Of a stretch of DNA of 64,000 nt, positions 129 to 41,546 are shown piece after piece; the stretch's first letter is position 1, and every line of letters starts with the position of its first letter. Below the pieces are notes generated by a model. That model was not told the DNA's origin, made no database searches, and was given only the letters and a program-made list of their open reading frames with translations. The position numbers and the translations under genes were made by a program. The stretch is from a virus (Duplodnaviria > Heunggongvirae > Uroviricota > Caudoviricetes): the IMG/VR virus record IMGVR_UViG_3300035492_000044, positions 46,179-110,178 of that record; one strand, 5' to 3'.

Positions 129-1049
129 GTGGATCTGAACAAACTGAAAGCTATTGCTGGTGATCTGAAGAAGAACCAGGAAGATCGTAAGAAGAATAGT
201 GGTGGGGGTGATTGGCCTAAGGCTACATTCCTCCCCGATGGTACCCACAAGGGTCGCTTCATCTTCGATCCGAATGAAGAAATCTATACCAAGTACGAGT
301 CCATCGGTTACTTTGCCAATGGTCTTCGTAACCCAGAGAACTACAAAGAGCAGTGGCCAGAAGGCTTCTACAATGAGATCCCCGATCTCAGCAAGGAGCT
401 GACTGGAGAGTACAAGATCTGGAAGTATGGTATGAAGACCAACTTCCTCGTATACTTCTACCTACTGGAGACTGATGCCAAGTCTGAGAACTGGCAGCCT
501 GGCACTCTGTATGCCATTATCGGCAACTGGAAGTTCGAAGATGCATTCACTGATCTTCTGACCAACATGGTGTCTGATGCCCCTGAGAAGATCCTGACCT
601 CCCTCGATCCGTCGAAGCCTGGTCCGGTATTCCAGATCACCTCTCAGGGTGGTAATCAGGGCAAGTGCAACATCTCGGCTACTTTCAAAGAGTCTCCGGA
701 GATCAGTATGGAAGGTCAGGGATACAAGTCCCTGGATGTCGCCTACATCCGTCCTGGCTTCGACCTCGAGAAGTACACCAAGATGGTCAAGGCTATGCGT
801 GAAGAACTGGCTCGATGCAAGCAGCGTCGTGCTGATGCTGGGTCTTCTGAGAAGAAGGAAGAGACTAAAGACGAGCCTAAGGCTCAAGAGTCTTCTTCTC
901 AAGCTCAGAGTGAGTCCACTCAGCAGGAACAATCTTCTACTGACGTGAAGCAGGAAGAAGCTAAGTCGGAGAATGTTGCAGAACAGGCTCAGTCTACTTC
1001 TACCGCTGAATCGACCGATGAGAATCCGTTCGCTAGATTCAAGCGTTAA
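129..1049 (+). CDS. ssDNA-binding protein, T4 gp32-like, with a long acidic S/E/Q-rich C-terminal tail
   Basis: N-terminal segment 'DWPKATFLPDGTHKGRFIFDPNEE' resembles the gp32 'W..L....G.AVIRFLP' region. Acidic low-complexity C-terminus is typical of SSBs. Preceded by a class-B motif at 31-65. Confidence 0.55.
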   Translation: MDLNKLKAIAGDLKKNQEDRKKNSGGGDWPKATFLPDGTHKGRFIFDPNEEIYTKYESIGYFANGLRNPENYKEQWPEGFYNEIPDLSKELTGEYKIWKYGMKTNFLVYFYLLETDAKSENWQPGTLYAIIGNWKFEDAFTDLLTNMVSDAPEKILTSLDPSKPGPVFQITSQGGNQGKCNISATFKESPEISMEGQGYKSLDVAYIRPGFDLEKYTKMVKAMREELARCKQRRADAGSSEKKEETKDEPKAQESSSQAQSESTQQEQSSTDVKQEEAKSENVAEQAQSTSTAESTDENPFARFKR

Positions 1050-1105
1050 GTGTTATGATGGGAGAGTTCGCAAGAGCTCTCCCATTTTATTTAGTGAGGA
1101 ATACC

Positions 1106-1963
1106 ATGCAACGAATAGTTATCGATGGCAACTGGCTAGGCATGAGAAACTTCCATGCTGCTGGTAAGATCCAGGATCGTAGTAAACTGGCCATCTCTAT
1201 CATGCAGTCCCTGTTGAAGATTATCCGGACAGATGAATATCGATCCCAGATTATTGTAGCATGGGACGGTGGTTCTTATCGGTATCGTGGATACCAAGAG
1301 GACTACAAAGAGGGTCGTGAGTATGACGAGGCATATAATTGTCTCTGGGAAGTACTGGCAACTCTACACGAACATCTACCTAAGATTGGCATCCACTCCA
1401 TTAGATGTAAGGGTGTTGAAGCAGATGATCTTGGGTACTATTACGGATGGCGTGCAGTTGAAGAGAATGTGTTCACTCTTCTTACTGCCATCGACCGTGA
1501 CTGGCTCATCTCCATAAATGAGAAGACATCGGTATTCCGTCCTGCTATCAATAAAGCACCTGAAGAGCTGGTTACTCACCAGAACATCGTTGAGAAGTTC
1601 CCTATCCAACACTTCTCCGAGTTCCTTATCTATAAGGCTATCTTCGGAGACGGTTCCGATAATATTCCAGGGGTAACTACTGGTGTTAATATTAACGAAG
1701 CTGTGTGCAAGTATAAGACAGGGCAACTCGGAGCTGATATTGTCGAGAAGATCGACAAGAACATCAACCTCATGCGACTTAATCACATTGTTACGGATAC
1801 AGAAGTCCATGAGATGATCAAAGAGTGTGAGAGTAAAATGGTACTTAATGTGCCTATCAGGGACCCTCTCACTGCTATTTGTGGCACCTTCCCTGAGTAC
1901 TTTAATGGTGTTGTTGGTAAATACCATCGTCTTCGCAAGTCAGAACTGATCGAGAGACTTTAG
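1106..1963 (+). CDS. 5'-3' exonuclease / flap endonuclease (T4 RNase H / PolI 5'-exo family)
   Basis: 'IVIDGNWLGMRNFHA', 'GVEADDL' and 'KAIFGDGSDNIPGV' match FEN/53EXO motifs. RBS 'gagga' before the ATG at 1106. Confidence 0.85.
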   Translation: MQRIVIDGNWLGMRNFHAAGKIQDRSKLAISIMQSLLKIIRTDEYRSQIIVAWDGGSYRYRGYQEDYKEGREYDEAYNCLWEVLATLHEHLPKIGIHSIRCKGVEADDLGYYYGWRAVEENVFTLLTAIDRDWLISINEKTSVFRPAINKAPEELVTHQNIVEKFPIQHFSEFLIYKAIFGDGSDNIPGVTTGVNINEAVCKYKTGQLGADIVEKIDKNINLMRLNHIVTDTEVHEMIKECESKMVLNVPIRDPLTAICGTFPEYFNGVVGKYHRLRKSELIERL

Positions 1964-1964
1964 C

Positions 1965-4742
1965 ATGAAATTTGTTATCTCAAGTGACGTACACATCTTC
2001 GACTTCCAACAGTTCAACTCTGGTGGTAATCGACTGAAGCAGTTCCCGCTTCTAGCTCATCGTCTTAATGCCATTGGTAGAGAGGAGGGGTCTAAGGACC
2101 TCATCCTCGCTGGTGACATTATTCACAAGGCAGTCCTCCGGCCATATGTAGTACACGTAGCTAAGGAGTTCTTCGATATCCTTCGGCTGCACTACACCAA
2201 CATCTATTACATCGTAGCTCAACACGATGCTGATAGTAAGGCTGAAGACTTAGGGTATGGTGATAGTCTTATCCCTATTATCTGCCCAGAAGCTAAGTAC
2301 ATGGACGGCCAGATCCTCGAGTTGGATAACAACCGTACTATGGCCTTCAGCAACTGGCGACCAGAGCAGAATTGGAGTTTCATTAAGGATAAGGTAGACA
2401 TTCTTATCGGGCATCTTACTCTGCATCCTATGTATGGCCAGGAGTACGATTGCAGCAAATACGAACTAGGATTCTTTGGTGACATACACCAGAAGTCCTC
2501 GTATGACAACGGTCGTACTAATACCATCAACGTTCCTATGCCTAACTACATCTCTGATGATCAGGAAGGCAGCGTAGTAGTTCTTGAGACTGATGACTTG
2601 TCATGGAAGCGTGTGCTGACTGAGTCTGAAGACTTCAAGTATCTGAAGATCTACTACGAAGACGAAGTACCTGCAGGTCTGGAAGGATATCCCAACCTAG
2701 CTCTGGTTGGACGATCGAAGGTGGATCCCTCCATTCAGCATATTCACACTTCAGTGAATGTTGATGAAGTAATCAAGGCGATTGTATCTAAGCTGGAGCT
2801 AGGTGAAATTCATAGCCAGCTTACTGGTCAAGTAGATCGTACTGATGTTTCTCCTCTCAATCTGAATTTCCGTCTCCGTACTATGGAGATCAACAACTTC
2901 AGGTCTATAGACAGGTTCGTATATGACTTTGATAGTGGTCTCACTACTATTACTGGCCATAATGGGGCTGGTAAGAGCTCCTTCATGGGAGCCCTTGACT
3001 ACGTACTTCGTGGATCATCCACGGCTCGTACTCTGGTTAAGAAAGGGACAGATAACATGTCTGTCACTATTACACTGGACTACGATGGTCGCTCTCACAC
3101 TATCATTCGTGGTGTTTCTGGTGGCAGCGGCATTATTAAGTACATTGTGGATGGTGAGGAGATGGTTGGAGCTGGCTCTCGTCAGATTGCAGCTGAAATC
3201 TCTGCCAAGCTTCCATTCTTAGCTCACTATGAGCTTATGTACCGTAGCCAGGAAGCTCCGGGACTACTTACCAGTTACGGTTATAATGACCGAATCAATA
3301 TGGTGAGTGAACTCCTGGGTCTTAGTCTGATCGGCAAATACCATGCAGTGGCTAAGACTAAGCTAGCTGAGGCTACCGCTCAGGTTAATCGTCGGAATAC
3401 TGAGATCGAAGGACTCAAGAGAGTTATTCTTGAGTACTCTGATGTTGATTTCTCTCTTCTTGACAATAAGAAGAACCTGGAAGATCAACTGGCATGGACC
3501 AATGAGTATCTCAAGTCCTATGAGGAGGATATGGGCAGACATAGAGAGCTTGCCCTAGTCCAGAATTCGATCAAGTCAACTCAGGACATGATCAATAGCC
3601 TTAATATTACCTTGACTGGTAATGAAGAGGCTGAAATCCAGGAACTACGTAAGCAGATTTCTGATGGGGAGAGCTTGATAGCTGAATTTACATCAGCCAA
3701 TAAGACTCACTCTGATGAAAGAGCAGCTAAGAAGCAGAGAGCCAAGTCCATTGAGAGTGATATTGAATCACTTAAGAAGCAGACTACTGGTGTTATGACT
3801 GCATGTCCTAGCTGTAAACGTGCATTCGATCCTTCGGATTATGAGAATGTTCTACAACACCTTCAGGATGAGATAGCCAAGAAGACTGAAGAGGCTAATC
3901 TGATACTCGAAGATATCCAGAAGACTGCTGAGCCTCCTCATGCAGAGTCTGATATCACTGAGATCAGAAATATCCTCAACGATCTTCGCAGCAAGATAAC
4001 CACTATCAATACTAAGATTGAGAACTACAATAAAGTTCGAGGTCTGGAAGAGAAGATGGTTACCCTCAAGCTACAGGAAGTTGGCATTCAAGCATCTATC
4101 AAGTATAAGCTGGATGAGATTACTAGTAAGAAGTCGGAGTTGCAAGGTCTGGCTGATGAATGCAATCGTCAACTGGGTGCTATCGATGGACTTCAGAAGC
4201 AATGGGATAAGCTCAAGTCATCTAAGACTGAACTGGCCGATGCTGAGAAGTGCTTAGAGGAGGATATTGCTACTAAGGAAGTACTTACTAAGTACGCAGG
4301 TATCTTCGCTCCGAGTGGTGATGTCACTGCATCTGTGTTCAAGTGTGTGGCTGATGAGATGACTGATGGTCGATTCAAGGTTCGTACCGTACGTGAGCTT
4401 GCTAGTGGTGAGACTCGCATTGACTTTGACATCGAACTCCAGGTTCACGATCTGATGCTACCTTATGGGGAACTGTCGGGAGGTCAACGTACCTATGCTG
4501 ACCTGTTCTTCATGAGTAAGCTGTTCAAGATGTCAGGTGTCGTAGGATGCTTGATTCTTGATGAATCACTTCGAGCTCTGGACCCAGATGCACTTGAAGA
4601 AGTTGTAGCTGAGATCAAGAGTGCTCCTATCAACAGCATCATTCTATCGACTCACGTAGAATCATTCCAGTTCTACGATGCCCGTCTGATGGCGCAACTG
4701 GTGGATAACACTACCAGATTCAGCGTTCACGGTAAGGTGTAA
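1965..4742 (+). CDS. Fused Mre11/SbcD-like phosphoesterase nuclease plus Rad50/SbcC-like ABC ATPase in one polypeptide
   Basis: N-terminus 'MKFVISSDVH..LILAGDIIH..IVAQHD..GHLTL' matches gp47/Mre11 metallophosphatase motifs. Then Walker A 'GHNGAGKSS', long coiled coil, zinc hook 'CPSCKRAF', signature 'LSGGQRTYADLFF', Walker B 'CLILDES'. Confidence 0.85.
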   Translation: MKFVISSDVHIFDFQQFNSGGNRLKQFPLLAHRLNAIGREEGSKDLILAGDIIHKAVLRPYVVHVAKEFFDILRLHYTNIYYIVAQHDADSKAEDLGYGDSLIPIICPEAKYMDGQILELDNNRTMAFSNWRPEQNWSFIKDKVDILIGHLTLHPMYGQEYDCSKYELGFFGDIHQKSSYDNGRTNTINVPMPNYISDDQEGSVVVLETDDLSWKRVLTESEDFKYLKIYYEDEVPAGLEGYPNLALVGRSKVDPSIQHIHTSVNVDEVIKAIVSKLELGEIHSQLTGQVDRTDVSPLNLNFRLRTMEINNFRSIDRFVYDFDSGLTTITGHNGAGKSSFMGALDYVLRGSSTARTLVKKGTDNMSVTITLDYDGRSHTIIRGVSGGSGIIKYIVDGEEMVGAGSRQIAAEISAKLPFLAHYELMYRSQEAPGLLTSYGYNDRINMVSELLGLSLIGKYHAVAKTKLAEATAQVNRRNTEIEGLKRVILEYSDVDFSLLDNKKNLEDQLAWTNEYLKSYEEDMGRHRELALVQNSIKSTQDMINSLNITLTGNEEAEIQELRKQISDGESLIAEFTSANKTHSDERAAKKQRAKSIESDIESLKKQTTGVMTACPSCKRAFDPSDYENVLQHLQDEIAKKTEEANLILEDIQKTAEPPHAESDITEIRNILNDLRSKITTINTKIENYNKVRGLEEKMVTLKLQEVGIQASIKYKLDEITSKKSELQGLADECNRQLGAIDGLQKQWDKLKSSKTELADAEKCLEEDIATKEVLTKYAGIFAPSGDVTASVFKCVADEMTDGRFKVRTVRELASGETRIDFDIELQVHDLMLPYGELSGGQRTYADLFFMSKLFKMSGVVGCLILDESLRALDPDALEEVVAEIKSAPINSIILSTHVESFQFYDARLMAQLVDNTTRFSVHGKV

Positions 4743-4750
4743 TTTGATTA

Positions 4751-4784
4751 GGGATAGTGGAGAAATCTGCTATCCCTTTTCATA
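4751..4784 (+). terminator. rho-independent terminator
   Basis: GGGATAG..CTATCCC hairpin + TTTTCAT after the SbcCD-like gene. Confidence 0.6.
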
Positions 4785-4796
4785 TGCAAAAATAGA

Positions 4797-4845
4797 GGGC
4801 GCTTACAGACGTCTAAAGCCAGTTAGGTTGGAAGGGGAATTCCCC
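4797..4845 (+). promoter_or_regulatory. Class-A conserved motif GGGCGCTTA-N9-AAAGCCAGTTARGGTGGAAG + GC hairpin (GGGGAATTCCCC)
   Basis: One of 9 near-identical copies: 4797, 16567, 22254, 28440, 32177, 57580, 61978, 62336, 63742. All on + strand, 25-60 nt upstream of a start codon. Confidence 0.6.
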
Positions 4846-4885
4846 AAATCAAAGCCAGTAAAAGGAAATGATCTTGAAAAATAAC

Positions 4886-5038
4886 ATGGTTCCGTTTGAT
4901 GCATCTTCGGTTGAATTCCTTATCACCAGCTACGACCCATTCGCTGGTGTATTCAACTGCGTTGACTCGGAGTTCAATGAATTCCGGGTATTCAAATGCA
5001 AGACTACTGGTAACCTGTTTATGGAGAAGTCGGTATGA
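4886..5038 (+). CDS. small hypothetical protein (50 aa)
   Basis: ORF found by eye below the track's size cutoff; lies between class-A motif 4797 and the next gene; ATGA overlap with the following ORF. Confidence 0.3.
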   Translation: MVPFDASSVEFLITSYDPFAGVFNCVDSEFNEFRVFKCKTTGNLFMEKSV

Positions 5039-5196
5039 AATTCAAATCTGGTCAGTCTTTCAAATATAAGGACAGGTACTTCGAAGTACTTGAACTGAAC
5101 ACTAATGAAGGGGCCTACATTTGCCTGGACGACCAGGAGGTTGTAGTTACCTTCCTAGTGACTGACGAGTCCGAGATGGAATTAGTGGAAGACTAA
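5035..5196 (+). CDS. small hypothetical protein (53 aa)
   Basis: ORF found by eye; translationally coupled to the upstream small ORF. Confidence 0.3.
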   Translation: MKFKSGQSFKYKDRYFEVLELNTNEGAYICLDDQEVVVTFLVTDESEMELVED

Positions 5197-5198
5197 AA

Positions 5199-5243
5199 CG
5201 ACGTTTTCTCATGTCGAAACCCTGTTAGGGGGAACGGTTCCCT
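5199..5243 (+). promoter_or_regulatory. Class-B conserved motif CGACGTTT-N7-10-TCGAAACCCTGTTAGGGTGGAAG + hairpin
   Basis: One of ~16 copies: 31, 5199, 8954, 9112, 12165, 17377, 26218, 33032, 34478, 35896, 36155, 36319, 41503, 43638, 47890, 52466. Some are degenerate. Confidence 0.6.
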
Positions 5244-5270
5244 TCCCTCTAACGTGATTGCGAGGACACT

Positions 5271-7268
5271 ATGTCGGCAGACATTAAGATTACAAAGTTG
5301 GTGTACCCGGAGACTATCCGCCAGAACGTGGGTATGTATCTGGGCGAGACTAAGGACTACACCACTCCGCTTCGTGAGATTATCAACAACTCCGAAGACG
5401 AAATCCTGAATAACCACGCCACTTGGATGCTGGTAGTCAACAAAGACAACGCCAAGATGGTCGTGGATAATGGCCGTGGTCTTCCAATCTACGAAGATCC
5501 TGACCATCCTGGTCGAGTGATTGCTCACTCCACCTTCACCGATGTCCACTCTGGTTCCAAGTTCGATAACCCGGATGAGGTTACTTCTGGTATCCACGGT
5601 GTAGGATCGTCGGCAGTAAACGCAGTAAGTGCACGCTACTGTGTGGCTGTCAACCTGAAGAAGAAAGATCTCAGCAAGACGACAGCAGCAATTCGTGCTG
5701 AAGTTGAGAACGAGAAGCTGAATAACCCCATCCTCTACATCGAGTACCAGAAGGGTCTGCTAGTGGCAGATCAAGTGCTGGATGGTGTCGAGTCTCTGAA
5801 GAATGTCTGGGGAGAAGATGTCCCTGAAGACTTTAGTACCGCAGTATTCATGGTACCGGACACCGATATCTACCAGTCCGGTCGAGCTAAGGTCTCGATG
5901 CTTCCGATTCAAATCATCCTGCAGGATAAGCCCAATGTGCGGATTACGGTGGACGGAGTAGAGGCTGAGCCCTACGACTTCGCTAAGTCCCTGGGTGATG
6001 AGGTAGCTCTATTCGAAGAAACTACTCTCAACTTCGAATACGAGCACAACTCCAGGCTGAAGATCAAAGGTGTGTTTGGTTTCGATACCAACACTATGAA
6101 CTACAACCACACCAGCTTGATTAACCTGATCGAGAACCCAGAAGGTGGTCTGATTGAGCGGGTAGTAACCCGAGCTCTTGGTGAATCCTTCAAGAAGCTG
6201 CATAGTGCACTTACCCCTTCGGATATCCGCATGGGGTTCAACCTGTTCACATCCAGCTTCAGCTCGTACAAGAAGAGCTTCGGATCTCAGACTAAGGAGA
6301 AACTGGTCAGCCTAGGTCTGCCAATGCACGAGGCATTGAGTAAGCTGAAGCTGCAGGGTCTGGAGGAGACTCCTGAGAATCTCTCGATTTACACCGTGAG
6401 TGAGGGGGAGATTCGTGATGGCCTGATCAAGTTCTTCGACAAGTTCATTAGCAAGAACAAGGCATTCTTCGAACTGCTAGCTGCTCGAGTAATTGAGTAT
6501 AAGCGTCAGATGAACCGCCTGTCTAGCATGGACTTCGTCAAGTCCAAGGTAATCATGGGCGATGAGAGTGACCGTAAGCGCTCTAATATCGCAGATGCTG
6601 CTAAGGTCTACGAGGCATCCTCGAGTGACTGGAAGCGACGTGAGCTCTACCTAACCGAGGGTCTCTCAGCATCAGGTGGCTTGATTAAGTTCCGTGATAA
6701 ACAACTTCAGTCCATTCTCCCACTTCGTGGTAAGATCCTGAACTGCTCTACCATGGAAGATGTTGACCTGGTGTCTAATGGTGAACTGCTGGCGGTGATT
6801 AACACCGTAGGTTGTGGTCTCGGAGAACTGGCCGATATCACCAAGTCCCGTTACGGCAAGATCATCATCGCAACAGACTCCGACTCGGACGGTAGCCATA
6901 TCGCCAACCTGATCCTTGCGATCTTCCTGATTCACGCCAGACCTCTGGTTGAAGCAGGTATGGTGTACAAGCTGACTCCTCCTTACTACCACGTGAAGAC
7001 AGGTAAGGAAGAGGCTTACTACAGCCACGCTGAACGTGACCTGATCGATTTCAATAAGTCGACGGTAACTAAGCGTAAGGGTCTTGGATCCTACAGCCCG
7101 GATGAAGTGAAAAAGTTCATGGTTAATCCGAGTACTCGCTGCCTTACCCAGATTACTCTGGATTCGGTGGATGAAGACACTCTGAAGCAAGCGATCTCCC
7201 TGCTCTACTCTAGCGCAGCACGTAAGAAGCTGATGATCGAAACTGGCGTACTGCGAGACGAGGAATAA
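5271..7268 (+). CDS. Type II DNA topoisomerase large subunit (GHKL ATPase + TOPRIM; T4 gp39/gp60-like)
   Basis: 'DNGRGLPI', 'IHGVGSSAVNAVS', TOPRIM 'YLTEGLSASG', 'IIIATDSDSDGSHI'. Confidence 0.9.
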   Translation: MSADIKITKLVYPETIRQNVGMYLGETKDYTTPLREIINNSEDEILNNHATWMLVVNKDNAKMVVDNGRGLPIYEDPDHPGRVIAHSTFTDVHSGSKFDNPDEVTSGIHGVGSSAVNAVSARYCVAVNLKKKDLSKTTAAIRAEVENEKLNNPILYIEYQKGLLVADQVLDGVESLKNVWGEDVPEDFSTAVFMVPDTDIYQSGRAKVSMLPIQIILQDKPNVRITVDGVEAEPYDFAKSLGDEVALFEETTLNFEYEHNSRLKIKGVFGFDTNTMNYNHTSLINLIENPEGGLIERVVTRALGESFKKLHSALTPSDIRMGFNLFTSSFSSYKKSFGSQTKEKLVSLGLPMHEALSKLKLQGLEETPENLSIYTVSEGEIRDGLIKFFDKFISKNKAFFELLAARVIEYKRQMNRLSSMDFVKSKVIMGDESDRKRSNIADAAKVYEASSSDWKRRELYLTEGLSASGGLIKFRDKQLQSILPLRGKILNCSTMEDVDLVSNGELLAVINTVGCGLGELADITKSRYGKIIIATDSDSDGSHIANLILAIFLIHARPLVEAGMVYKLTPPYYHVKTGKEEAYYSHAERDLIDFNKSTVTKRKGLGSYSPDEVKKFMVNPSTRCLTQITLDSVDEDTLKQAISLLYSSAARKKLMIETGVLRDEE

Positions 7269-7271
7269 GAA

Positions 7272-8519
7272 ATGACTGAAGCAATTCAAATCTCTGCTGA
7301 CAAGTTCCTGGTTGATAACTATCAGGACTACGGCAGTTACATCAACTTCAACCGAGTAATTCCTGGAGTTGATGGTCTCAAGCCATCGCTGCGTCGTATC
7401 CTGATGGCTCTTCATAAGGTAGCTGGTGGCTCACTTACCAGCACGGTGAATGCCATCGGTGCTACTCAGGTCTACCACCCATTCGGTGACATGTCCATCT
7501 TCAACACGATGACGGATATGGCCCGAGTTGGTGCAGTAGATAGCTTCGGTGACTTCGGAATCAAGCTGATCGAATCGGTCGATGCCTCTGCTCCTCGTTA
7601 TACCAAGGTAGGTCTGTCCAAGTCCCAAGACGACTACTACTTCAAGCTGCTGAACTACACTCCGCAGGTTGAAGGTGAAGAAACTATGGAGCCTGAGTTC
7701 CTTCTGGTTCCTGTTCCGTACTCTCTGATCTACGGCACCATGTCCTGGGGTCTGGGTATCAACGTCAGATCTCCGGCCTTCACTTACGACTCCATTGTGG
7801 AAGCGTATCGGTCAGATGACCCCAGCAAGCTAGTCCCTCAGTATGGCTATAAGATCAATCGTAGCCAGAGTGACCTAGAGGAACTCTGGAATAGAGGTAC
7901 TGGACGAGTAGCTCTGGGGTATAAGGTAGAGCGACTTGATTCGGACACCGTCCTTATGATTGGCTCTGGTGAGGTGTTTACTCCCAAGCTAGCTGCCTTC
8001 GGTAAATGGACTGAAGAGGGTCAGATCAAGGTAACTAACGAGTCCGACGAGAAGGTGATCATCCGGATTACCAGAATCAAGGGTGCTCGTAAGGTCAATA
8101 TGGACGAGGTCTACGAGACTGCAGTTCGAATTGGTACCAACATCCGACGCTACGATATCCGGATCGTACACGAGGGTAAGATTATCCGCCTCGGTATGAA
8201 GGACTGGCTGGATGTGACGATGACTCTGTTCAAGCAGAAGTACGAACAGTTCAAGTCAGATCGAGTTGCTAAGCTGGAAGAGGAGATCCGTGTACTGGAG
8301 ATCCTACCAGAAGTAGGTAAGCTGATTCTGGCTGGTAAGAGTAATGAGGAAATCGCTGATGCTGTCAAGGCTTCTGCCGAGGATGTAGCCAAGTGTATGA
8401 AGAAGCCTGTAGGCATGCTTCGTAAGGGTGAATTCACTGCAGAGATCAAGTCCAATGAAGACAAGATCAAGGCTATCAAAGCAGAGTCTGCCGAAGACCT
8501 GATTACCAAGGGCATGTAA
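7272..8519 (+). CDS. Type II DNA topoisomerase DNA breakage-reunion subunit (T4 gp52 / GyrA-like)
   Basis: 'GLKPSLRRILMAL' and the active-site region 'APRYTKVGLSKS'. Confidence 0.85.
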   Translation: MTEAIQISADKFLVDNYQDYGSYINFNRVIPGVDGLKPSLRRILMALHKVAGGSLTSTVNAIGATQVYHPFGDMSIFNTMTDMARVGAVDSFGDFGIKLIESVDASAPRYTKVGLSKSQDDYYFKLLNYTPQVEGEETMEPEFLLVPVPYSLIYGTMSWGLGINVRSPAFTYDSIVEAYRSDDPSKLVPQYGYKINRSQSDLEELWNRGTGRVALGYKVERLDSDTVLMIGSGEVFTPKLAAFGKWTEEGQIKVTNESDEKVIIRITRIKGARKVNMDEVYETAVRIGTNIRRYDIRIVHEGKIIRLGMKDWLDVTMTLFKQKYEQFKSDRVAKLEEEIRVLEILPEVGKLILAGKSNEEIADAVKASAEDVAKCMKKPVGMLRKGEFTAEIKSNEDKIKAIKAESAEDLITKGM

Positions 8520-9172: not shown

Positions 9173-10174
9173 ATGAACAATCTGGATTTACGTGCAGTAG
9201 TATTGCCAAAGGCAATCATCGAGAAATTCCTGAGCATCGAGAAAGAAGTACTCGAGTCTGGCAATCTGGCATGGTCAGTCTACGACAAGAACTGGTGGAA
9301 TGATGGTGGCATCTTCCGTATCCCAGTATCCAGCAATTGCACTGGTCAACTACTGGTAGCTATGTACCACATAGCTAAGCACGGTATCAAAGCTCTAGTC
9401 TACCCGAAGAATACCTTCGAGGGAATCAAGACTACTTATCGTATGCTTCATGCATTCGGTATTCAGACATACCAAGTGGATATGGGTCTCAATAACACCA
9501 ATATCCCATCTGCGGAAGATATCCGTGAACTCACTGGCCATTTTATCGATGACGTGCTTCTGGTAGCTACCAACATTGGTGGCATGAAGTTCGACTACGA
9601 TACCAGCGATTACCTCCATGTAATGCTGGATGGTGCACATGCCCAGTTCCTGGAATATGAAGAAGACGAGAACTACGACTCGGTAGTATACAGCTTCTTC
9701 GCTACTAAGTCTACTCCGGTGGGAGAAGGTGGTCTCATCGCTACTCGTGATGAAGAAATGGCTGACTGGCTCATCCAGACCCTTATGTACGACAAGCCTC
9801 ACTTCAAGGCTCTAGGTCTGAACTTCCGTGTATCTACGGCCACCGCTCTGAAGATGCGTTACCTCCTAACTAGTGGGGAGTCTACCAGTACTCTTCTCGA
9901 GCACAGAGTTGATATTTGGCAGATGTATGCCAAAGTATGTACTGAACTTGGAGTGAGCTTTGTCAATCCTCGTTCTGGTACCATGAACGGGTATAAGTTC
10001 ATGATTACCGATCCTCGGATCACTGACATGGAATGCCTGACTACCAGTAAGGCATTCGAACTGTACCACAACGTCTGCCCGGCTACTTATCCTCAACTGT
10101 CTGAGCAACTGCCAGAACTGGAAAGAGTATTCCGCAGTATCATCACCAAGAATCTGGAGAAAGCTTCAGCATGA
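9173..10174 (+). CDS. DegT/DnrJ/EryC1-like PLP sugar aminotransferase (short form)
   Basis: 'SFFATKSTPVGEGGLIATRDEEMADWL' resembles the DegT 'SFHxxKxxxxGEGG' lysine region. Preceded by two class-B motifs. Confidence 0.5.
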   Translation: MNNLDLRAVVLPKAIIEKFLSIEKEVLESGNLAWSVYDKNWWNDGGIFRIPVSSNCTGQLLVAMYHIAKHGIKALVYPKNTFEGIKTTYRMLHAFGIQTYQVDMGLNNTNIPSAEDIRELTGHFIDDVLLVATNIGGMKFDYDTSDYLHVMLDGAHAQFLEYEEDENYDSVVYSFFATKSTPVGEGGLIATRDEEMADWLIQTLMYDKPHFKALGLNFRVSTATALKMRYLLTSGESTSTLLEHRVDIWQMYAKVCTELGVSFVNPRSGTMNGYKFMITDPRITDMECLTTSKAFELYHNVCPATYPQLSEQLPELERVFRSIITKNLEKASA

Positions 10175-11307
10175 GTCACATGAACCTCAACCAACAAATC
10201 CCAGCTCGTCCTGTTCGTGAGTTCGACAAAGTAGTTGTCGTTACTGGTGGATCGGGATTCATCGGAGGTGCATGTGTCAAGCTCCTCAATGAAGATCCAT
10301 GCGTTTCTGAGATCCGAATCCTGGACGTAGCATTCCCTGACTACGAACTGACTTCGAAGATGCGCTACTTCCGAGTAGACGTCAACGATCTGGCAACTCT
10401 TCTGAAGTACTCTGTCGATGCTGACGAGTGGATCGACAACGTAGGTCTGCTCGGCACTGGTGATACTCATGAACTGGGTAGCTATCCTGCGACAGCTCTG
10501 GCGACTAACGTCAATGGCTTCCTCAATCAGCTGGAAGCTGCGTACCTCAACGGTGTACCTCGCTTCTTCCACCAGACCAAGAATCGCTTCGATACTACCA
10601 ATGGTACTGAAGGTGGTCTGTCTGAAAACTGGTATACTGCTACTAAGAGTATGGCGGAGATCGCTGCATTCTGGGCACGTAAGAGTCGTCATCAGCAGGT
10701 AACTGTAGTTCGTTACCTCAATGCATCCGGTCGTCGTCAGCATCTGGGTCCAGTTCGTAAGCTGTTCCCTCTGGCAGTAGTCAACGCTATTCTGGACATC
10801 GACTTCACTGTCTACGGTGATGGTCAGCAACTGGCCGACTTCATTCATGTGGAAGACCTGGCTTCTGCAGCTATGACCTTCATGCGTGCCGATAGCATGG
10901 ACAAGCCTGTCCGTATGCTGGATATCGGTACTGGTCAAGCTATCAGTATTCTTGATCTGGTCACCAAGATCAAGCAGAAGATTCCTAGCAGCAAGTCTGC
11001 TATCCAGTTCCTCCCTATGCGTAAGGGTGAGAAAGAGAATACTCGCATCGAAGCTGATCTTCGTGACATCGAGGAGGCTCGCAGCTATGGCTGGGAATGC
11101 AAGTTCTCTGAAGAAGATGTGATCAACGACTACATCCAGTACTACCTGTCTGGAGATGTGGACTACACTTACATCTACAATACCATGGTCTACTTCCAAG
11201 AGACCTACAGCCCATTCACTTCCAATGGTCAACCAATCAACATCCGTGATATGGGTGTCGAAGGTGTCCGTCAGAAGTTCATCGAGAAGATGCAGAACGA
11301 TGGCTAA
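10171..11307 (+). CDS. NAD-dependent sugar epimerase/dehydratase (extended SDR)
   Basis: 'VTGGSGFIGG' Rossmann motif and 'YTATKSMAE' YxxxK. Confidence 0.8.
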   Translation: MSHMNLNQQIPARPVREFDKVVVVTGGSGFIGGACVKLLNEDPCVSEIRILDVAFPDYELTSKMRYFRVDVNDLATLLKYSVDADEWIDNVGLLGTGDTHELGSYPATALATNVNGFLNQLEAAYLNGVPRFFHQTKNRFDTTNGTEGGLSENWYTATKSMAEIAAFWARKSRHQQVTVVRYLNASGRRQHLGPVRKLFPLAVVNAILDIDFTVYGDGQQLADFIHVEDLASAAMTFMRADSMDKPVRMLDIGTGQAISILDLVTKIKQKIPSSKSAIQFLPMRKGEKENTRIEADLRDIEEARSYGWECKFSEEDVINDYIQYYLSGDVDYTYIYNTMVYFQETYSPFTSNGQPINIRDMGVEGVRQKFIEKMQNDG

Positions 11308-12172
11308 ATACGACGTAGTGCTGACAGGTTCTGATGGCTACATTGGGACCTATGTCAAGAATGCTCTTTCCACTATGGGTCTGAGTGTTCTCTGTGTTGA
11401 CCTCAAGTCAGGTCTTCACATGGCTGACGTCATGGGTGTATCTGCTAAGTGGTTGATCCACTTAGCAGCACTTATTGATGTTCGAGAGAGCCATGACAAG
11501 AACCATGCTTACTTCGACAATAACTGTGGCGCCTACTACGATCTGGTGATGAAGAATGGTAACACATTCGAAAATATCATCTATGCTTCGAGTGCTGCAG
11601 TTTATGACGACCACGGGAACATCAATCCTCAGTCTGTCTACGGGATGACTAAGCTTAATGGGGAATACATCACTAAGATGGCTTCTCCTACTAATCACCT
11701 AGTTCTCCGGTTCGCTAACCCAGTTGGAGTCAGCCCGGTTAGTACTCCTAAGATGGGTGATGGTCTATTCTTCAAACTGGCTCAAGCAGCCGTTGATGAG
11801 AAGGTCTTCTCCATCCACAACTCCGAACATATGAAGCGGGACTTCTTCCCGGTAATCTGGATTCCTCTTCTGATCTCTGCGGTCATTAAGGATGAGAACT
11901 TCAGCATGTTCGGTACTCATGACCTATGTAGCGGAAAGCTGGTCACTGTTCGCAGTGTCGTTGAAGCTCTCTGCGATCTTCATGAGATCGGGTACAAACT
12001 GGTAGCACCTCCCATCGGAACTCTGGAGAATGTGGAAGAGCGTGATTGCCCTATCCTCAACCAGTACCTGGATATCGTTTATCGTGGGTATGATCCAGTT
12101 GCATTTGTTACTGAGCAGTTCCCCAACTATCTCAAGTTAGCAGCTAAGATCGCTATCAAGTCCAGCGTTTAA
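11300..12172 (+). CDS. NAD-dependent epimerase/reductase family (SDR)
   Basis: 'LTGSDGYIGTYV' and 'YGMTKLNGEY' YxxxK; ATG overlaps the upstream stop. Confidence 0.7.
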   Translation: MAKYDVVLTGSDGYIGTYVKNALSTMGLSVLCVDLKSGLHMADVMGVSAKWLIHLAALIDVRESHDKNHAYFDNNCGAYYDLVMKNGNTFENIIYASSAAVYDDHGNINPQSVYGMTKLNGEYITKMASPTNHLVLRFANPVGVSPVSTPKMGDGLFFKLAQAAVDEKVFSIHNSEHMKRDFFPVIWIPLLISAVIKDENFSMFGTHDLCSGKLVTVRSVVEALCDLHEIGYKLVAPPIGTLENVEERDCPILNQYLDIVYRGYDPVAFVTEQFPNYLKLAAKIAIKSSV

Positions 12173-36059: not shown

Positions 36060-36144
36060 CCGGGTATGGTGAAATCGGTAGACACAAGAGCCTTAAACCC
36101 TCTGGACTATTGTCATGCCAGTTCGAGTCTGGCTACCCGGACCA
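36060..36144 (+). tRNA. tRNA-Leu (anticodon TAA), type II
   Basis: Acceptor CCGGGTA/TACCCGG, long variable arm, T-arm GCCAG-TTCGAGT-CTGGC, encoded CCA. Confidence 0.75.
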
Positions 36145-36359
36145 TATTTCTAAACGACGTTTTACTACGTCGAAACCCTGTTAGGGTGGAAGACGAGTGT
36201 ATTTGAGAAGGCTGGCCAGAATAGCTTCTGGTAGGGTGAACTCTCTGGAGACCGATGACGCCATGCTTCGGTAGCGCATGAAGATGATCCGTCAGTCCTT
36301 CTCCAATACAATCTAGACCGACGTCCAAATAAATCGAAACCCTGTTAGGTTGGAAGTGC

Positions 36360-36438
36360 GATTAAAAGGACCCTAGGCTAACCTCAGTAGGTCTCCCCCA
36401 GATGCTGAAGCTGGATGTCCTAGGATCCTTTTAATCTC
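36360..36438 (+). repeat. Long imperfect inverted repeat (~17 bp arms, ATTAAAAGGACCCTAGG / CCTAGGATCCTTTTAAT) forming an ~80 nt stem-loop
   Basis: Lies directly between class-B motif 36319 and tRNA-Arg. Confidence 0.5.
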
Positions 36439-36443
36439 ATTTC

Positions 36444-36520
36444 GCGTCCATAGCTCATCTGGATAGAGCAGGGGATTTCTAATCCCCTGGTGGTAGGTTC
36501 GAGTCCTACTGGACGCGCCA
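36444..36520 (+). tRNA. tRNA-Arg (anticodon TCT)
   Basis: Acceptor GCGTCCA/TGGACGC, anticodon loop TTTCTAA in stem GGGGA/TCCCC, GGTTCGAGTCC T-arm, CCA. Confidence 0.8.
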
Positions 36521-36969
36521 TATACCCGGCACTTACTGATGTCGTAGCTCGATAAACTCTAGTATCATTAGTTAGGATCGAAACCTCTACTAATGCTCTA
36601 TTAGATAAGGTTGGGTCAGTGGAGCAGTAGCCCTTACGTGGAGTGGGTATGTGTCAGAAGAGGCACTCCGCTCGATAACTGTCACGTGTGAATAATGAAT
36701 ACTATGCAGCTAGTTTTATTATTCTGGGTTTAGATGTCATGCTGCTACTCATGCATTATTTCTCCTGTTGGAGAGTGCAGGCGGAGAGGAGGCATCCTCG
36801 TAGAAGCCGAGTAGAGTCGACCACGGTCTAGCGGTGGAGGCAGTGCCCGTACTGTCATTTAGAATGATATCCTTCGGCTGTAAGGATGACGGGTAATAGA
36901 GCAAGCGGTGAGTACTAACTGCCTGCAGGACTTTGATGTGGTGTCAGAGTCCTGTGGAGTAAGTATTCT

Positions 36970-37046
36970 GCGGAATTAGCTCAGTTGGATAGAGCATCTG
37001 CCTTCCAAGCAGAGGGTCACGAGTTCGAGTCTCGTATTCCGCTCCA
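36970..37046 (+). tRNA. tRNA-Gly (anticodon TCC)
   Basis: Acceptor GCGGAAT/ATTCCGC, loop CTTCCAA, U73, CCA. Confidence 0.8.
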
Positions 37047-37050
37047 TTAT

Positions 37051-37127
37051 TGGGGTATAGCACAGTTGGTAGTTGCGTCTGACTGTTAATCAGAATGTCG
37101 TAGGTTCGAGCCCTACTACCCCAGCCA
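37051..37127 (+). tRNA. tRNA-Asn (anticodon GTT)
   Basis: Acceptor TGGGGTA/TACCCCA, loop CTGTTAA, GGTTCGAGCCC T-arm, CCA. Confidence 0.7.
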
Positions 37128-37371
37128 AATTTGGTGTTACTCCCGATCGAAAGATACTGAAACATGAAATCGTCTCCGCACGATGTAGGCCTTACGAGGT
37201 CATGATCAGCCAAGAGATGACAGGTCCGAGTAGATTAGTAGCACCGTCTTAATCACGCAGAGGCGGACTGCATCGAGAGCCATTAGAAAAGTGTAACTCC
37301 ACGAGAACCTCAGACTCTGGACTACATGACCGGCACTAGCTTCACTCGATCTAATAATTAAACGCAACCAT

Positions 37372-37456
37372 GCGGATGTGGTGAAATTGGTAGACACACC
37401 TGGTTTAGGTCCAGACGCCTACGGGCGTGAGAGTTCGAATCTCTCCATCCGCACCA
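37372..37456 (+). tRNA. tRNA-Leu (anticodon TAG), type II
   Basis: Acceptor GCGGATG/CATCCGC, long variable arm, loop TTTAGGT, CCA. Confidence 0.65.
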
Positions 37457-37711
37457 TATTCGAGACCCCACTAGTCAGCCGAAGTACTGGTGGAGATTAG
37501 TGTCATGAGCTAGTCTGCCCAGGTCTCGAATCAAAACAGGAGAGTCCTTAGATGGTGCTATCTAGCCAGTTGCATTCGTAGTCTACCCGTCGGCTACATT
37601 GAATGCCTAAGTGACTCTCCGCCTATTATGGGGTATGCCTCGTCTAAAGCATTGGGATCTGTGATGATACCAGGGTGGGTAACTACGTAGTCCCACATAC
37701 TCCACCAGTTT

Positions 37712-37787
37712 GCCGGTATAGCTCAGCTGGTAGAGCAGCTGACTTGTAATCAGCAGGTCGTGAGTTCGAATCCCACTGCCGGCACCA
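37712..37787 (+). tRNA. tRNA-Thr (anticodon TGT)
   Basis: Acceptor GCCGGTA/TGCCGGC, stem GCTGA/TCAGC with loop CTTGTAA, CCA. Confidence 0.8.
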
Positions 37788-37799
37788 TATTGTGGTTAC

Positions 37800-37916
37800 T
37801 GGTTCCTATCATTATGTGGTTGGAAGCAAAAAGTCTAGTAATCACAACCTAATTGCTGTAATCCCTCTTGAAGTGAAACATGATGGACGGGAGTTCGACT
37901 CTCCCCAGCTCCACCA
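37800..37916 (+). ncRNA. ssrA: tmRNA acceptor piece (3' half of a permuted ssrA): T-arm + 3' acceptor strand + CCA
   Basis: 'GGACGGGAGTTCGACTCTCCCCAGCTCCACCA' ends 37916 and closely matches the E. coli tmRNA 3' end '..GGGTTCAACTCCC.CCAGCTCCACCA'. No matching 5' acceptor strand upstream. Left boundary is approximate. Confidence 0.65.
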
Positions 37917-37986
37917 TAGTTACCCTGGTAGTGACAGCCTTTGAGTGCGGTCTTAATCTACCATGGCTATCAGAGTAACTATGATG

Positions 37987-38240
37987 GGGCTGATCTGGAT
38001 TCGACATTGTGCGTAGTGAATAGAGGCAGCACAGGTAGATGACTGCCTGAAGTTGAGCCACCTTGCGGAAGGTCTGGGCTCAGCTGAAATAGCATAAATC
38101 AAGTAACTGCCAACGATGAATCGTTCGCACCTCTGGCTCTGGTTGCTTAAGTAACCTGATGCTGGTCGGGTATCTTCGGATCGCTCTCCTGCTATAGCTA
38201 ATACCTATAGTTGCCTCGGAACAGAAAGAGAGCACCTATT
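37987..38240 (+). ncRNA. ssrA: tmRNA coding piece (5' acceptor strand GGGGCTGATCTGGATTCGAC..., tag ORF ANDESFAPLALVA-stop)
   Basis: 'GGGGCTGATCTGGATTCGAC' at 37987 matches the tmRNA 5' end 'GGGGCUGAUUCUGGAUUCGAC'. Tag frame 'GCC AAC GAT GAA TCG TTC GCA CCT CTG GCT CTG GTT GCT TAA' at 38109-38150. Lies downstream of the CCA end, so the gene is circularly permuted. 3' boundary approximate. Confidence 0.7.
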
Positions 38241-38257
38241 TCATTAGTGAGGACTAA

Positions 38258-38467
38258 ATGGAACATCACATCCTTAATCTCACTGCCCAGAAGGGTCGCC
38301 TGTATTACTACCAGGGTAATTTCTACCATCCGCTTGATCTGGTAGGTAACTCGGTAGGTCTAGTGAAGAGAGGAATTCGAGAGTTCCTCGCTAAGAATAA
38401 AGATATGGTAGCTCGTGACAGAGCTAGCCCAGACTACAAGACTCTGGTTGAATTATCAGGTCTTTAA
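38258..38467 (+). CDS. hypothetical small protein
   Basis: ORF within the tRNA island. Confidence 0.3.
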   Translation: MEHHILNLTAQKGRLYYYQGNFYHPLDLVGNSVGLVKRGIREFLAKNKDMVARDRASPDYKTLVELSGL

Positions 38468-38570
38468 CTAATCCTGTCGTTGGGACTACCCAGTAGCCAT
38501 GAACTTCTGGGCGTCAGTAGAAGATACTGGACCAGTACGAAACCTGGTAATAATTAATTAGGAGAGCAGC

Positions 38571-38774
38571 ATGATGCTATCTGAGTTGGGTCAACGTATC
38601 TTGGCCCACTATGTTGAAAGACGTAGCGGTAAGTCGGGTAACTACATCCCTACTGACTGTGATCGTAAAGCAGCTCAACTAGCTGCTGAGAATACCACGG
38701 ATCATCTACGTGGAGCTACTGTTATGGCTCGGATGTATGATGACAAGCTTGCTGGTAAGGCTCCTATTAAGTAG
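38571..38774 (+). CDS. hypothetical small protein
   Basis: ORF with RBS 'ggagag'. Confidence 0.3.
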   Translation: MMLSELGQRILAHYVERRSGKSGNYIPTDCDRKAAQLAAENTTDHLRGATVMARMYDDKLAGKAPIK

Positions 38775-38917
38775 GAGCCGACTCGTACTTTCTGATGAGT
38801 AGCCCGAGTATAAAAGGCACGAAACTGTAATAGTCAAAGAGCCACTGATGGTGGCCAGTTAGTAACTCACACTGTAGCTAACTGAATTACGTTTGCAGAG
38901 GACCGTCAATCTGAAGC

Positions 38918-39625: not shown

Positions 39626-39626
39626 T

Positions 39627-39716
39627 GGAGAGTTGGCCGAGTGGTTTAAGGCACCTGACTTGAAATCAGACGGATCAGCAATGGTCCCCAGGGTTCGAAT
39701 CCCTGGCTCTCCACCA
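39627..39716 (+). tRNA. tRNA-Ser (anticodon TGA), type II
   Basis: Acceptor GGAGAG../..CTCTCC, long variable arm, loop CTTGAAA, GGTTCGAATCC T-arm, CCA. Confidence 0.7.
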
Positions 39717-40585: not shown

Positions 40586-40638
40586 TCCATCAGAAGCCAC
40601 TAATGCTGTGGAAAACTCTGCAAAAATTTAGGTGACTT

Positions 40639-40932: not shown

Positions 40933-40935
40933 GTT

Positions 40936-41502: not shown

Positions 41503-41546
41503 CGACTTCCAGATAGTCCGAAACCCTGTTAGGGTGGAAGTCGGAA

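Follow-up and report, generated by a model that had tools for sequence, protein, structure and literature searches.

The window analysed here, the whole stretch of 64,000 nucleotides (64 kb), carries a single unbroken open reading frame (ORF) of 925 amino acids with an ATG start (Table 1), as given by the list of ORFs. An earlier start is ruled out by an in-frame stop at 1947-1949. For this gene, it had been predicted that an Mre11-like nuclease is fused at the N-terminal side to a complete Rad50-like ATPase with a coiled coil and a CxxC motif, and the evidence from sequence, profiles, fold and family agrees on this architecture. The gene directly upstream encodes a FEN-type exonuclease, whose stop codon ends 2 nt ahead of the ATG of the fusion, and two subunits of a type II topoisomerase are encoded downstream. 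In E. coli phage IME392, the gene order is the same as in the window, namely, 5'-3' exonuclease, fusion, topoisomerase II B and A. Synteny with the upstream exonuclease is shared with IME392, YerA41 and RHph_TM39. The fusion gene is part of a replication module, and this synteny is conserved across phages of different hosts.

Table 1. Features of the fusion gene and of its neighbours in the window. Residue numbers are those of the fusion protein.
Feature	Position	Strand	Remarks
FEN/T4 RNase H-type 5'-3' exonuclease gene	1055..1963	+	phrog_107 'exonuclease', E 7e-24; Pfam 5_3_exonuc_N on Logan contig
Whole CDS, single-chain Mre11-Rad50 (SbcDC-type)	1965..4742	+	925 aa; stop codon counted; ORF list
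Mre11/SbcD-type di-metal phosphoesterase (nuclease) core, about residues 1-199	1965..2561	+	boundary approximate, from AF2 secondary structure
Motif I SDVHI, residues 7-11	1983-1997	+	nuclease core
Motif II GDIIH, residues 50-54	2112-2126	+	nuclease core
Motif III AQHD, residues 85-88	2217-2228	+	nuclease core
Motif IV IGHLT, residues 148-152	2406-2420	+	nuclease core
Motif V GDIH, residues 172-175	2478-2489	+	nuclease core
Beta-rich capping-like domain, about residues 200-250	2562..2714	+	
Flexible loop, residues 251-262	2715..2750	+	sole segment with pLDDT <50; alignment variable, gapped
Helix-loop-helix (HLH), residues 263-290	2751..2834	+	AF2; helices 266-276 and 280-287, H283 inside
Linker and fusion junction, residues 291-301	2835..2867	+	frame unbroken; D/L-F/L-N-F motif leads into first Rad50 strand
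Rad50 ATPase N-lobe, residues 302-453	2868..3323	+	Pfam SMC_N, AAA_23, AAA_29; PDB Rad50 5f3w/3aux, E ~1e-11
Walker A GHNGAGKSS, residues 331-339	2955-2981	+	N-lobe
Ascending coiled-coil arm, residues 454-608	3324..3788	+	AF2 helices 454-492, 497-545, 554-608
Zinc-hook apex, residues 609-622	3789..3830	+	AF2; hook motif in loop joining two long helices
CPSC (CxxC), residues 614-617	3804-3815	+	canonical CPxC hook
Descending coiled-coil arm, residues 623-780	3831..4304	+	AF2 helices 623-653, 661-711, 716-780
Rad50 ATPase C-lobe, residues 781-925	4305..4739	+	second stretch of PDB Rad50 alignment, residues 714-918
Signature LSGGQ, residues 837-841	4473-4487	+	C-lobe
Walker B LILDE, residues 863-867	4551-4565	+	C-lobe
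D-loop SLRALD, residues 868-873	4566-4583	+	C-lobe
H-loop STHV, residues 895-898	4647-4658	+	C-lobe
Type II topoisomerase large subunit	5271-7268	+	phrog_543, E 4e-93
Type II topoisomerase A-like subunit	7272-8519	+	phrog_551, E 5e-35

Continuity of the gene

The junction between the two halves had been placed at about position 2860. This corresponds to LNLNFRL at residues 298-304 (nt 2856-2876), and the frame runs across it unbroken. The D/L-F/L-N-F motif of the junction is conserved in the alignment of relatives, and F302 is kept in 139 of 146 full-length relatives; here and below, conservation counts refer to these 146, which are 146 clusters at 50% identity. Production of a separate Rad50 from a conserved internal start was rejected, since M307, the sole Met near the junction, is not conserved.

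The Logan assembly of run SRR11791770 contains a 19-kb contig that overlaps the window by 7,742 bp. All of these bases are identical, and the whole gene is covered. The exact protein (P0001) was found only on one JGI contig (110,178 bp) and one Logan contig. The phage collection contained no DNA nearly identical to the window, so that the genome is taken to be absent from GenBank, which holds relatives at the protein level only. Two 306-aa ORFs with GTG starts at the window ends suggested a long direct repeat; this was rejected, as their proteins are unrelated and the window is without a long repeat.

The nuclease half

Domain annotation, one of the checks proposed along with the original prediction, came out on its side. 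Pfam Metallophos matches residues 1-161 with 26.7 bits against a gathering score of 21.5 (30.2 bits with the domain scanned alone), and AAA_15, SMC_N, AAA_23 and AAA_29 match from residue 303 on. All five motifs of calcineurin-like phosphoesterases are found in the nuclease domain, together with the di-metal ligands and the catalytic His. Six of the eight active-site positions of PfMre11 are identical in the window protein; at the other two, Gln86 stands in place of Asn84 and Asp173 in place of His206. D51 and G172 are kept in all 146 relatives, D8, H10, H87, H150 and H175 in 145 each, and D173 in 144. Ala85 is peculiar to the window protein, since Gly occupies this place in 145 of the 146. 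The departures at Ala85, Gln86 and Asp173 suggest that nuclease activity or metal preference could differ from those of canonical Mre11.

By comparison of folds, the modelled domain belongs with Mre11, capping domain included, and not with metallophosphatases in general. The HLH lies where canonical Mre11 carries its Rad50-binding HLH. Its H283 is invariant in two alignments (A1 and A2) and kept in 131 of the 146 relatives, and residues 281-290 have a pLDDT of 91 in the full-length model versus 64 in the model of the isolated N-domain.

The ATPase half

The bipartite head of an ABC ATPase is complete, with Walker A, signature, Walker B, D-loop and H-loop. G334, G336 and K337 are kept in every one of the 146 relatives, and so are S838 and D866, while E867 is found in 145. 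H897 is kept in 132, and Gln replaces it in 10 more. For the Q-loop, YRSQE at 426-430 is a candidate, an assignment that family conservation supports poorly. In the AF2 model, two coiled-coil arms, antiparallel and each about 155 residues long, are inserted between the ATPase lobes. The hook cysteines are kept as well (C614 in 144 and C617 in 143 of 146); Pfam Rad50_zn_hook matches residues 614-643 with 19.2 bits, under its gathering score of 24.3. The distances are close to those of the family, as Walker A and the hook are 277 residues apart (median 278) and the hook and the signature 224 (median 225).

PHROG 77 (SbcC-like) matches with E 5e-47, and both ATPase lobes align to M. jannaschii Rad50 in a sequence search of the PDB. 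No NCBIfam model passed for either half, and the best Rad50 equivalog, NF003034, scored 77 bits where its cut-off demands 700. Judged by such matches, the window protein is a distant Rad50-like homolog and not an ortholog of archaeal Rad50. The full-length model has a pLDDT of 84.7 with head, arms and hook all present, and the fold that it matches best in the PDB is that of Rad50 from the MRN complex of C. thermophilum (7zr1, E 1.6e-18).

Conservation of the fused state

Matches to homologs extend down to E 1e-196, and both this E-value and that of PHROG 77 are much too low to be due to chance. Comparison with related phages had been another suggested check, and it likewise favoured the fusion, because 133 of the best 150 nuclease-domain relatives share the layout of the window protein, being 814-1344 aa long with the nuclease domain at residues 1-300. 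Among these 150, no unfused member was found. Fifteen relatives shorter than 500 aa were considered as stand-alone Mre11 genes, and this was rejected; the ten fetched are truncated fragments that all reach the fusion junction, seven running clearly into the Rad50 head and three ending at the junction motif. In GenBank, about 20 phage records match over the full length in a single piece. 'Split' relatives were also rejected as the trace of a separable ancestor, as their breaks do not fall on the boundary between Mre11 and Rad50. The gene of YerA41 is interrupted (827 + 185 aa) with the cut ahead of the Rad50 C-lobe, and GN1, a relative of YerA41, matches in one piece. The two CDS of RHph_TM39 are a partial tandem duplicate, both copies of which begin at query residue 46. 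By the counts given above, strong purifying selection acts on the catalytic residues and on those of the hook across a large family, all members of which are fused. Conservation of 98-100% across the 146 relatives in the metal ligands, Walker A/B, signature and hook cysteines suggests that both activities are probably intact.

Proposed function and alternative readings

Taken as a whole, the gene is assigned with good confidence to a genuine single-chain Mre11-Rad50 (SbcDC-type) enzyme, probably catalytically competent, of a tailed phage of about 110 kb. In T4, the role of gp46/47 is end resection for recombination-dependent replication. This role is also found in the discussion of the 2011 study of natural fusions (PMC3175470). 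By analogy, processing of DNA ends for recombination and replication, as by gp46/47, is the likely function of the window protein. No biochemical, structural or functional study of a natural Mre11-Rad50 fusion was found in the searchable literature, and a mechanism may be drawn from SbcCD, Mre11-Rad50 and T4 gp46/47. Two chains would pair via their nuclease domains, their ATP-engaged heads and a zinc shared at the hook, giving an equivalent of M2R2. Binding and hydrolysis of ATP would toggle the head between resting and cutting states, by which the nuclease would gain access to DNA ends, hairpins and blocked ends. The HLH probably still binds at the foot of the coiled coil, in the way that Mre11 proteins encoded apart from Rad50 use their Rad50-binding domain. 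During infection, the probable task of the enzyme is to initiate the resection of ends in recombination-dependent replication and in the repair of breaks. The FEN-type exonuclease encoded next to it is a presumptive partner, and breaks tied to the neighbouring type II topoisomerase are possible substrates.

The canonical Mre11-Rad50 complex is already M2R2. For this reason, the fixed 1:1 stoichiometry that had been ascribed to the fusion is no distinguishing consequence and was dropped. What the fusion guarantees is that nuclease and ATPase are co-expressed, co-assembled and co-transferred.

ABC ATPases are also joined to nuclease effectors in conflict systems (OLD, Gabija, PARIS, Lamassu-like), and the window protein might serve superinfection exclusion, degradation of host DNA or counter-defence in this manner. 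The P-loop region matches PtuA, retron effectors and OLD-family ATPases weakly, and SMC-like heads of Lamassu and JetABC are among the fold matches. In addition, T4 gp46/47 contributes to degradation of host DNA (2026 preprint 10.64898/2026.07.21.739742), and cellular carriers of a fusion usually also keep the canonical pair, suggesting a different role there (PMC3175470). However, the matches to defence proteins are limited to the generic Walker A region (E 0.02-0.5), and Rad50 is the best match in both sequence and fold. The fold of the nuclease is that of Mre11, with its capping domain, and differs from TOPRIM and other folds of defence effectors, and a CPxC hook at the apex of a coiled coil is a hallmark of Rad50. 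Furthermore, the gene is flanked by replication genes in an order that holds across phages of different hosts, and no other copy of Mre11 or Rad50 is present in the 64-kb window, although the rest of the genome of about 110 kb may carry a separate gp46/gp47 pair or a recombinase. A role in conflict is thus improbable.

Still less probable is that the N-terminal domain is a degenerate, catalytically dead metallophosphatase that lends a Rad50-like ATPase nothing more than a module for structure or DNA binding. AQHD instead of GNHD in motif III, GDIH instead of GHxH in motif V and the modest Metallophos score point in this direction. Against it, the other ligands and the catalytic His (H87) are kept in 145-146 of 146 relatives, and Asp173, itself kept in nearly all of them, is able to bind metal. 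Mimivirus R555 has an equal exchange of Asp for His206 and is still read as having a nuclease domain (PMC3175470). Moreover, six identical positions out of eight is the threshold at which a nuclease is called intact in the 2026 preprint (10.64898/2026.07.21.739742). Both marks by which that preprint recognises an intact fusion, these six PfMre11 positions and the CPxC hook, are found in the window protein.

Lastly, an artefact or a recent frameshift, by which adjacent gp47-like and gp46-like genes were wrongly merged into one ORF, has next to no likelihood: the two contigs with the exact protein possibly come from the same sample and the gene is interrupted in YerA41 and RHph_TM39, but these interruptions lie away from the boundary, the junction sequence is conserved, single-piece records are many in GenBank, and assembly error is excluded, to the extent that is possible without reads, by the base-identical independent assembly together with the fused relatives.

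A possible single lineage

It is conceivable, although doubtful at present, that the single-chain enzyme belongs to one ancient, fused-only Mre11-Rad50 lineage common to tailed phages and giant viruses, in which the HLH, retained within the chain, and a short tether could alter ATP gating of the nuclease relative to two-subunit complexes. Such a lineage might be marked by GDxH as motif V, which 144 of 146 members have, and by a motif III with Gln or Asn. If true, a single fused lineage would contradict the 2011 view of repeated, unrelated fusions, and the compact, confidently modelled 925-aa protein would be a good minimal model for the mechanism of Mre11-Rad50. The conservation of the fused state across the family is in any case a data point on the number of fusion origins. 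A compact and well-folding single-chain enzyme with a cultivable relative (IME392) would also be a convenient model for control of the Mre11 nuclease by ATP.

Comparison with known systems

Natural fusions of Mre11 and Rad50 were described in 2011 for Mimivirus (R555) and Bacillus phage 0305phi8-36, with plasmid and eukaryotic examples as well (Yoshida, Claverie and Ogata, 2011; PMC3175470). They have since been reported in a variety of viruses that infect bacteria, archaea or eukaryotes, e.g., Listeria phage LMTA-57 and Lactobacillus phage LfeInf (2026 preprint 10.64898/2026.07.21.739742), both of which are also among the fold matches of the window model. The architecture is thus not new but published in 2011, reported again in 2026 and common in phages, and for this reason it would not surprise a specialist. 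The fusion had been called unusual. This stands relative to T4 and bacteria; it does not stand against the published natural fusions and the fused clusters, of which there are at least 146 at 50% identity.

In the published fusions, the domains come in the same order as in the window protein, the Mre11-like nuclease at the N-terminus and the Rad50-like ATPase after it. Again as in the window protein, a segment of the length of a capping domain and HLH and a short linker precede Rad50 (PMC3175470). The layout of Yoshida et al. (2011) is found here in full, that is, an Mre11-like part N-terminal to a Rad50-like part in one ORF with a linker that fits the geometry of the complex. R555, by its published description, has two departures in common with the window protein, GDxxH in motif II and Asp for His206 of PfMre11. 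It is 1351 aa long against 925 aa, and the arms of the window protein are short and T4-like. Over its whole length, the window model can be aligned with proteins of 1200-1390 aa from giant viruses (Harvfovirus, Tupanvirus, Catovirus and others), at an identity of only 12-14%. Whereas the fusions of the 2011 study are non-monophyletic (PMC3175470), the window protein belongs to a large phage clade in which all members are fused.

In GenBank, fused homologs with the length and architecture of the window protein, each of them matching end to end in a single piece, are found in E. coli phage vB_EcoM_IME392 (AXY86089.1, 921 aa) and Ralstonia phage RP13. The same holds for Acinetobacter phages vB_AbaM_3098 and Ab1-TPeters, the Rhizobium RHph_TM30 group, Vibrio phages Va2 and 1.031.O, Cobetia phage Carin-5 and Thermus phage phiLo. 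Identity of the fused homologs to the window protein is only 24-37%. Their labels are inconsistent (hypothetical protein, SMC family ATPase, SbcC-like, SbcD-like, coil containing protein), and therefore the fusion goes mostly unremarked in database records. The correct label would be fused Mre11-Rad50 (SbcDC) end-processing nuclease, and not 'SbcC ATPase', 'SMC family ATPase' or 'hypothetical protein'.

Outside the fusions, defence proteins of the OLD, Gabija and PARIS type combine TOPRIM or another defence nuclease with a hookless ABC ATPase, in contrast to the Mre11 fold and hook of the window protein. In E. coli SbcCD and in archaeal and eukaryotic Mre11-Rad50(-Nbs1) (6s6v, 3av0, 5f3w, 7zr1), separate subunits are joined by the C-terminal HLH of Mre11, whereas the connection is covalent here. 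Identity of these structures to the window protein is only 10-15%, and the arms of SbcC and eukaryotic Rad50 are much longer. Unlike cellular Mre11, the window protein shows Gln or Asn at motif III, and Asp is part of its motif V. T4-like Klebsiella phages have gp46-type proteins that match window residues 302-726 at about 22% identity, and the nuclease half gave no tblastn match in these phages. T4 gp47/gp46 have the same two activities that are predicted for the window protein, and the coiled coil is short in both. In T4, however, these are two separate genes and polypeptides, while a single ORF encodes them in the window.

Architecture of the fused protein

The original prediction of a natural Mre11-Rad50 (SbcDC-type) fusion in a single chain is correct: one ORF encodes an Mre11-type and a Rad50-type half, and it belongs to a fused family. 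The ORF lies at 1965-4742 (+) of the window, as predicted, and comprises 925 codons from an ATG located 2 nt past the stop codon of the upstream gene. No earlier start is possible because of an in-frame stop at 1947-1949. Domain annotation, which had been proposed as a check, gives Metallophos at residues 1-161 in Pfam (26.7 bits, gathering score 21.5; a scan restricted to the first 300 residues gives 30.2 bits), and the Rad50/SMC-type ATPase families AAA_15, SMC_N, AAA_23 and AAA_29 are placed from residue 303 onwards. The expected N-terminal domain of about 300 aa, the CxxC motif (CPSC, residues 614-617, with a sub-threshold Pfam match to the Rad50 zinc hook at 614-643) and the junction near nt 2860 (residues 298-304) were likewise recovered. 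Of the 20 top PDB sequence matches of the N-terminal profile, 18 are Mre11/SbcD nucleases, among them those of P. furiosus (Mre11, E 1.6e-9) and E. coli (SbcD, E 7e-7); the remaining two are MPE, a related nuclease. The C-terminal 630 residues match phrog_77, 'SbcC-like subunit of palindrome specific endonuclease' (E 5e-47), and the closest solved structures by sequence are the archaeal Rad50 heads 5f3w and 3aux (E about 1e-11), to which both ATPase lobes align. With 77 bits where 700 are required, the protein falls outside the curated archaeal Rad50 equivalog families.

A fold search with the full-length structural model (pLDDT 84.7) ranks Rad50 of the Chaetomium MRN complex first among solved structures (7zr1; E 1.6e-18), ahead of SMC-family heads. 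Between the two halves lies a conserved helix-loop-helix, at the position where separate Mre11 proteins bear their Rad50-binding element. Residues 281-290 have a pLDDT of 91 in the full-length model versus 64 in a model of the isolated domain, which suggests that this element may still dock on the base of the coiled coil.

Features of the 925-aa fusion protein. Structural elements are those of the full-length model; conservation is counted in an alignment of 146 full-length fused representatives.
Feature	Residues	Conserved in (of 146)	Remark
Nuclease metal ligands and catalytic His	D8, H10, H87, H150, H175	145
Nuclease	D51, G172	146
Nuclease	D173	144
Disordered loop	251-262		only one in the model
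Two short helices	266-276 and 280-287
Rad50 N-lobe	starts at 302
Walker A	K337	146
Long helical arms	454-608 and 623-780		linked by the CPSC loop, then C-lobe
Zinc hook	C614; C617	144; 143
Signature motif	S838	146
Walker B	D866; E867	146; 145
H-loop	H897	132	Q in 10 more

Gene neighbourhood and proposed role

The fusion gene is directly preceded by a gene for a FEN/T4 RNase H-type 5'-3' exonuclease and followed by genes for two type II topoisomerase subunits. The same gene order surrounds the homolog in E. coli phage vB_EcoM_IME392, and the exonuclease gene is also found upstream of the homologs in Yersinia phage YerA41 and Rhizobium phage RHph_TM39. The remainder of the window encodes a ribonucleotide reductase, a helicase and a DNA polymerase; it holds no second copy of an Mre11 or Rad50 domain. 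Upstream of the exonuclease, a 306-aa ORF at 129-1049 (+), which has no match in PHROG, carries a C-terminal tail that is long, acidic and rich in Ser, Gln and Glu and finishes with ...DENPFARFKR; in location and tail the ORF recalls a single-stranded DNA-binding protein.

The original prediction held that fusion fixes a 1:1 stoichiometry, but this argument is weak since the canonical Mre11-Rad50 complex is already 1:1. What fusion does guarantee is co-expression, co-assembly and joint transfer, as was also argued in 2011 (PMC3175470). By analogy with T4 gp46/47 and SbcCD, the protein would act as a homodimer equivalent to the canonical M2R2 complex (discussed in PMC3175470), in which ATP would control whether the nuclease can reach DNA ends, hairpins or blocked ends, and it would begin resection for recombination-dependent replication and break repair. 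That the ATPase-nuclease fusion serves in defence or conflict instead is improbable in view of the Mre11 fold of the nuclease, the presence of a Rad50 hook and the location of the gene in a replication module with conserved synteny; likeness to OLD/PtuA-type ATPases is confined to the P-loop.

Conservation of the catalytic centres

Both catalytic centres and the hook are strongly conserved, which argues that the protein would work as a real nuclease-ATPase machine. A dead nuclease domain is very unlikely, because its ligands are kept across the 146 relatives. Two positions set the family apart from canonical Mre11: Asp replaces His206 of P. furiosus Mre11 (motif V reads GDxH), and the motif III residue is Gln in 82 members and Asn in 63. 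The window protein alone has Ala at residue 85 (nt 2217-2219; AQHD), where 145 of the 146 have Gly (GQHD/GNHD). Spacing between motifs is close to the family median, both from Walker A to the hook (277 versus 278 residues) and from the hook to the signature motif (224 versus 225), and the predicted arms, roughly 155 residues long, are typical of the family.

Authenticity of the fusion

Wrong joining of the ORF during assembly is excluded for practical purposes by three lines of evidence. First, the exact protein occurs both on the 110,178-bp JGI contig and on a 19-kb contig of a separate Logan assembly (run SRR11791770), which is identical to the window at 7,742/7,742 overlapping bases. Second, a profile built on the first 300 residues retrieved 255 clusters at E <= 1e-30 from a set of 1.84 billion representative proteins, and 133 of the best 150 share the fused layout (814-1344 aa, nuclease domain at residues 1-300). 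Ten short relatives were fetched as possible stand-alone nucleases; all extend to the junction (seven clearly enter the Rad50 head and three end at the junction motif), and they are therefore truncated pieces of fused proteins. Third, the comparison with related phages that had been called for revealed about 20 GenBank phage records matching the entire protein in a single piece, from hosts including Escherichia, Ralstonia, Acinetobacter, Rhizobium, Vibrio, Cobetia and Thermus.

The homologs of RHph_TM39 and YerA41 appear split, in neither case at the Mre11-Rad50 boundary. In YerA41 (2902-5939 of its record), the homolog is interrupted just 5' of the Rad50 C-lobe and annotated as two genes with a 4-nt overlap, one of 827 aa (nuclease, Rad50 N-lobe and coiled coil) and one of 185 aa (C-lobe). 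This break is either a sequencing frameshift or a truly split ATPase; the homolog of its close relative vB_Yru_GN1 matches in a single piece. In the partial genome of RHph_TM39 (3070-6916), a truncated 443-aa copy (query residues 46-465) immediately precedes a near-complete 815-aa copy (46-920); either the gene is partly duplicated in tandem or the record contains an assembly artefact.

Other features of the window

A permuted (two-piece) tmRNA is encoded at 37807-38241 (+) within a tRNA cluster at 36060-41966 (Rfam tmRNA_permuted, 104 bits against a gathering score of 47; beta_tmRNA, 86.6 against 84). ARAGORN predicts the tag peptide ANDESFAPLALVA, and eight tRNA genes (Leu-taa, Arg-tct, Gly-tcc, Asn-gtt, Leu-tag, Thr-tgt, Ser-tga and Met-cat) flank the gene. 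The betaproteobacterial tmRNA type may be a pointer to the host. Adjacent ORFs of 484 and 507 aa at 58240-59694 and 59776-61299 (+) match the RNA polymerase beta subunit families phrog_2987, phrog_3015 and phrog_25354. They suggest a putative split multisubunit RNA polymerase; phiKZ-like and AR9-type phages are known to have enzymes of this kind, and the present genome measures only about 110 kb. Two ORFs at 10171-11307 and 11156-12172 (+) share a match to phrog_540 'nucleotide-sugar epimerase' and occupy different frames, with an overlap of about 150 nt; they may represent either two paralogs or one gene that has been frameshifted or duplicated.

Relation to known fusions

The fused architecture is of a known kind: Yoshida, Claverie and Ogata (2011; PMC3175470) described natural Mre11/Rad50 fusions in Mimivirus (R555), Bacillus phage 0305phi8-36, Clostridium kluyveri and Deferribacter plasmids and several eukaryotes, and considered the many metagenomic R555 homologs to be probably phage-derived. 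In a July 2026 preprint (10.64898/2026.07.21.739742), metallophosphatase-ATPase fusions are reported from bacterial, archaeal and eukaryotic viruses; its exemplars from Listeria phage LMTA-57 and Lactobacillus phage LfeInf are both among the fold matches of our model. Judged by its sequence, the window protein counts as a high-confidence intact fusion in the sense of that preprint, because at least six of the eight reference active-site positions are identical and a CPxC hook is present. The class turns out to be common in phages, and the window protein is a new, fairly divergent representative, sharing only 24-37% identity with the nearest phage proteins in GenBank. Giant-virus proteins of 1200-1390 aa also align end to end with its model in the fold search; they and the uniformly fused clade may share one origin. 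As a compact natural single-chain enzyme, the window protein would be of practical use in mechanistic work. As reported for R555 (PMC3175470), its motif II ends in His and Asp stands at the position of His206. Its arms are short, as in T4 gp46 and unlike those of cellular SbcC/Rad50.
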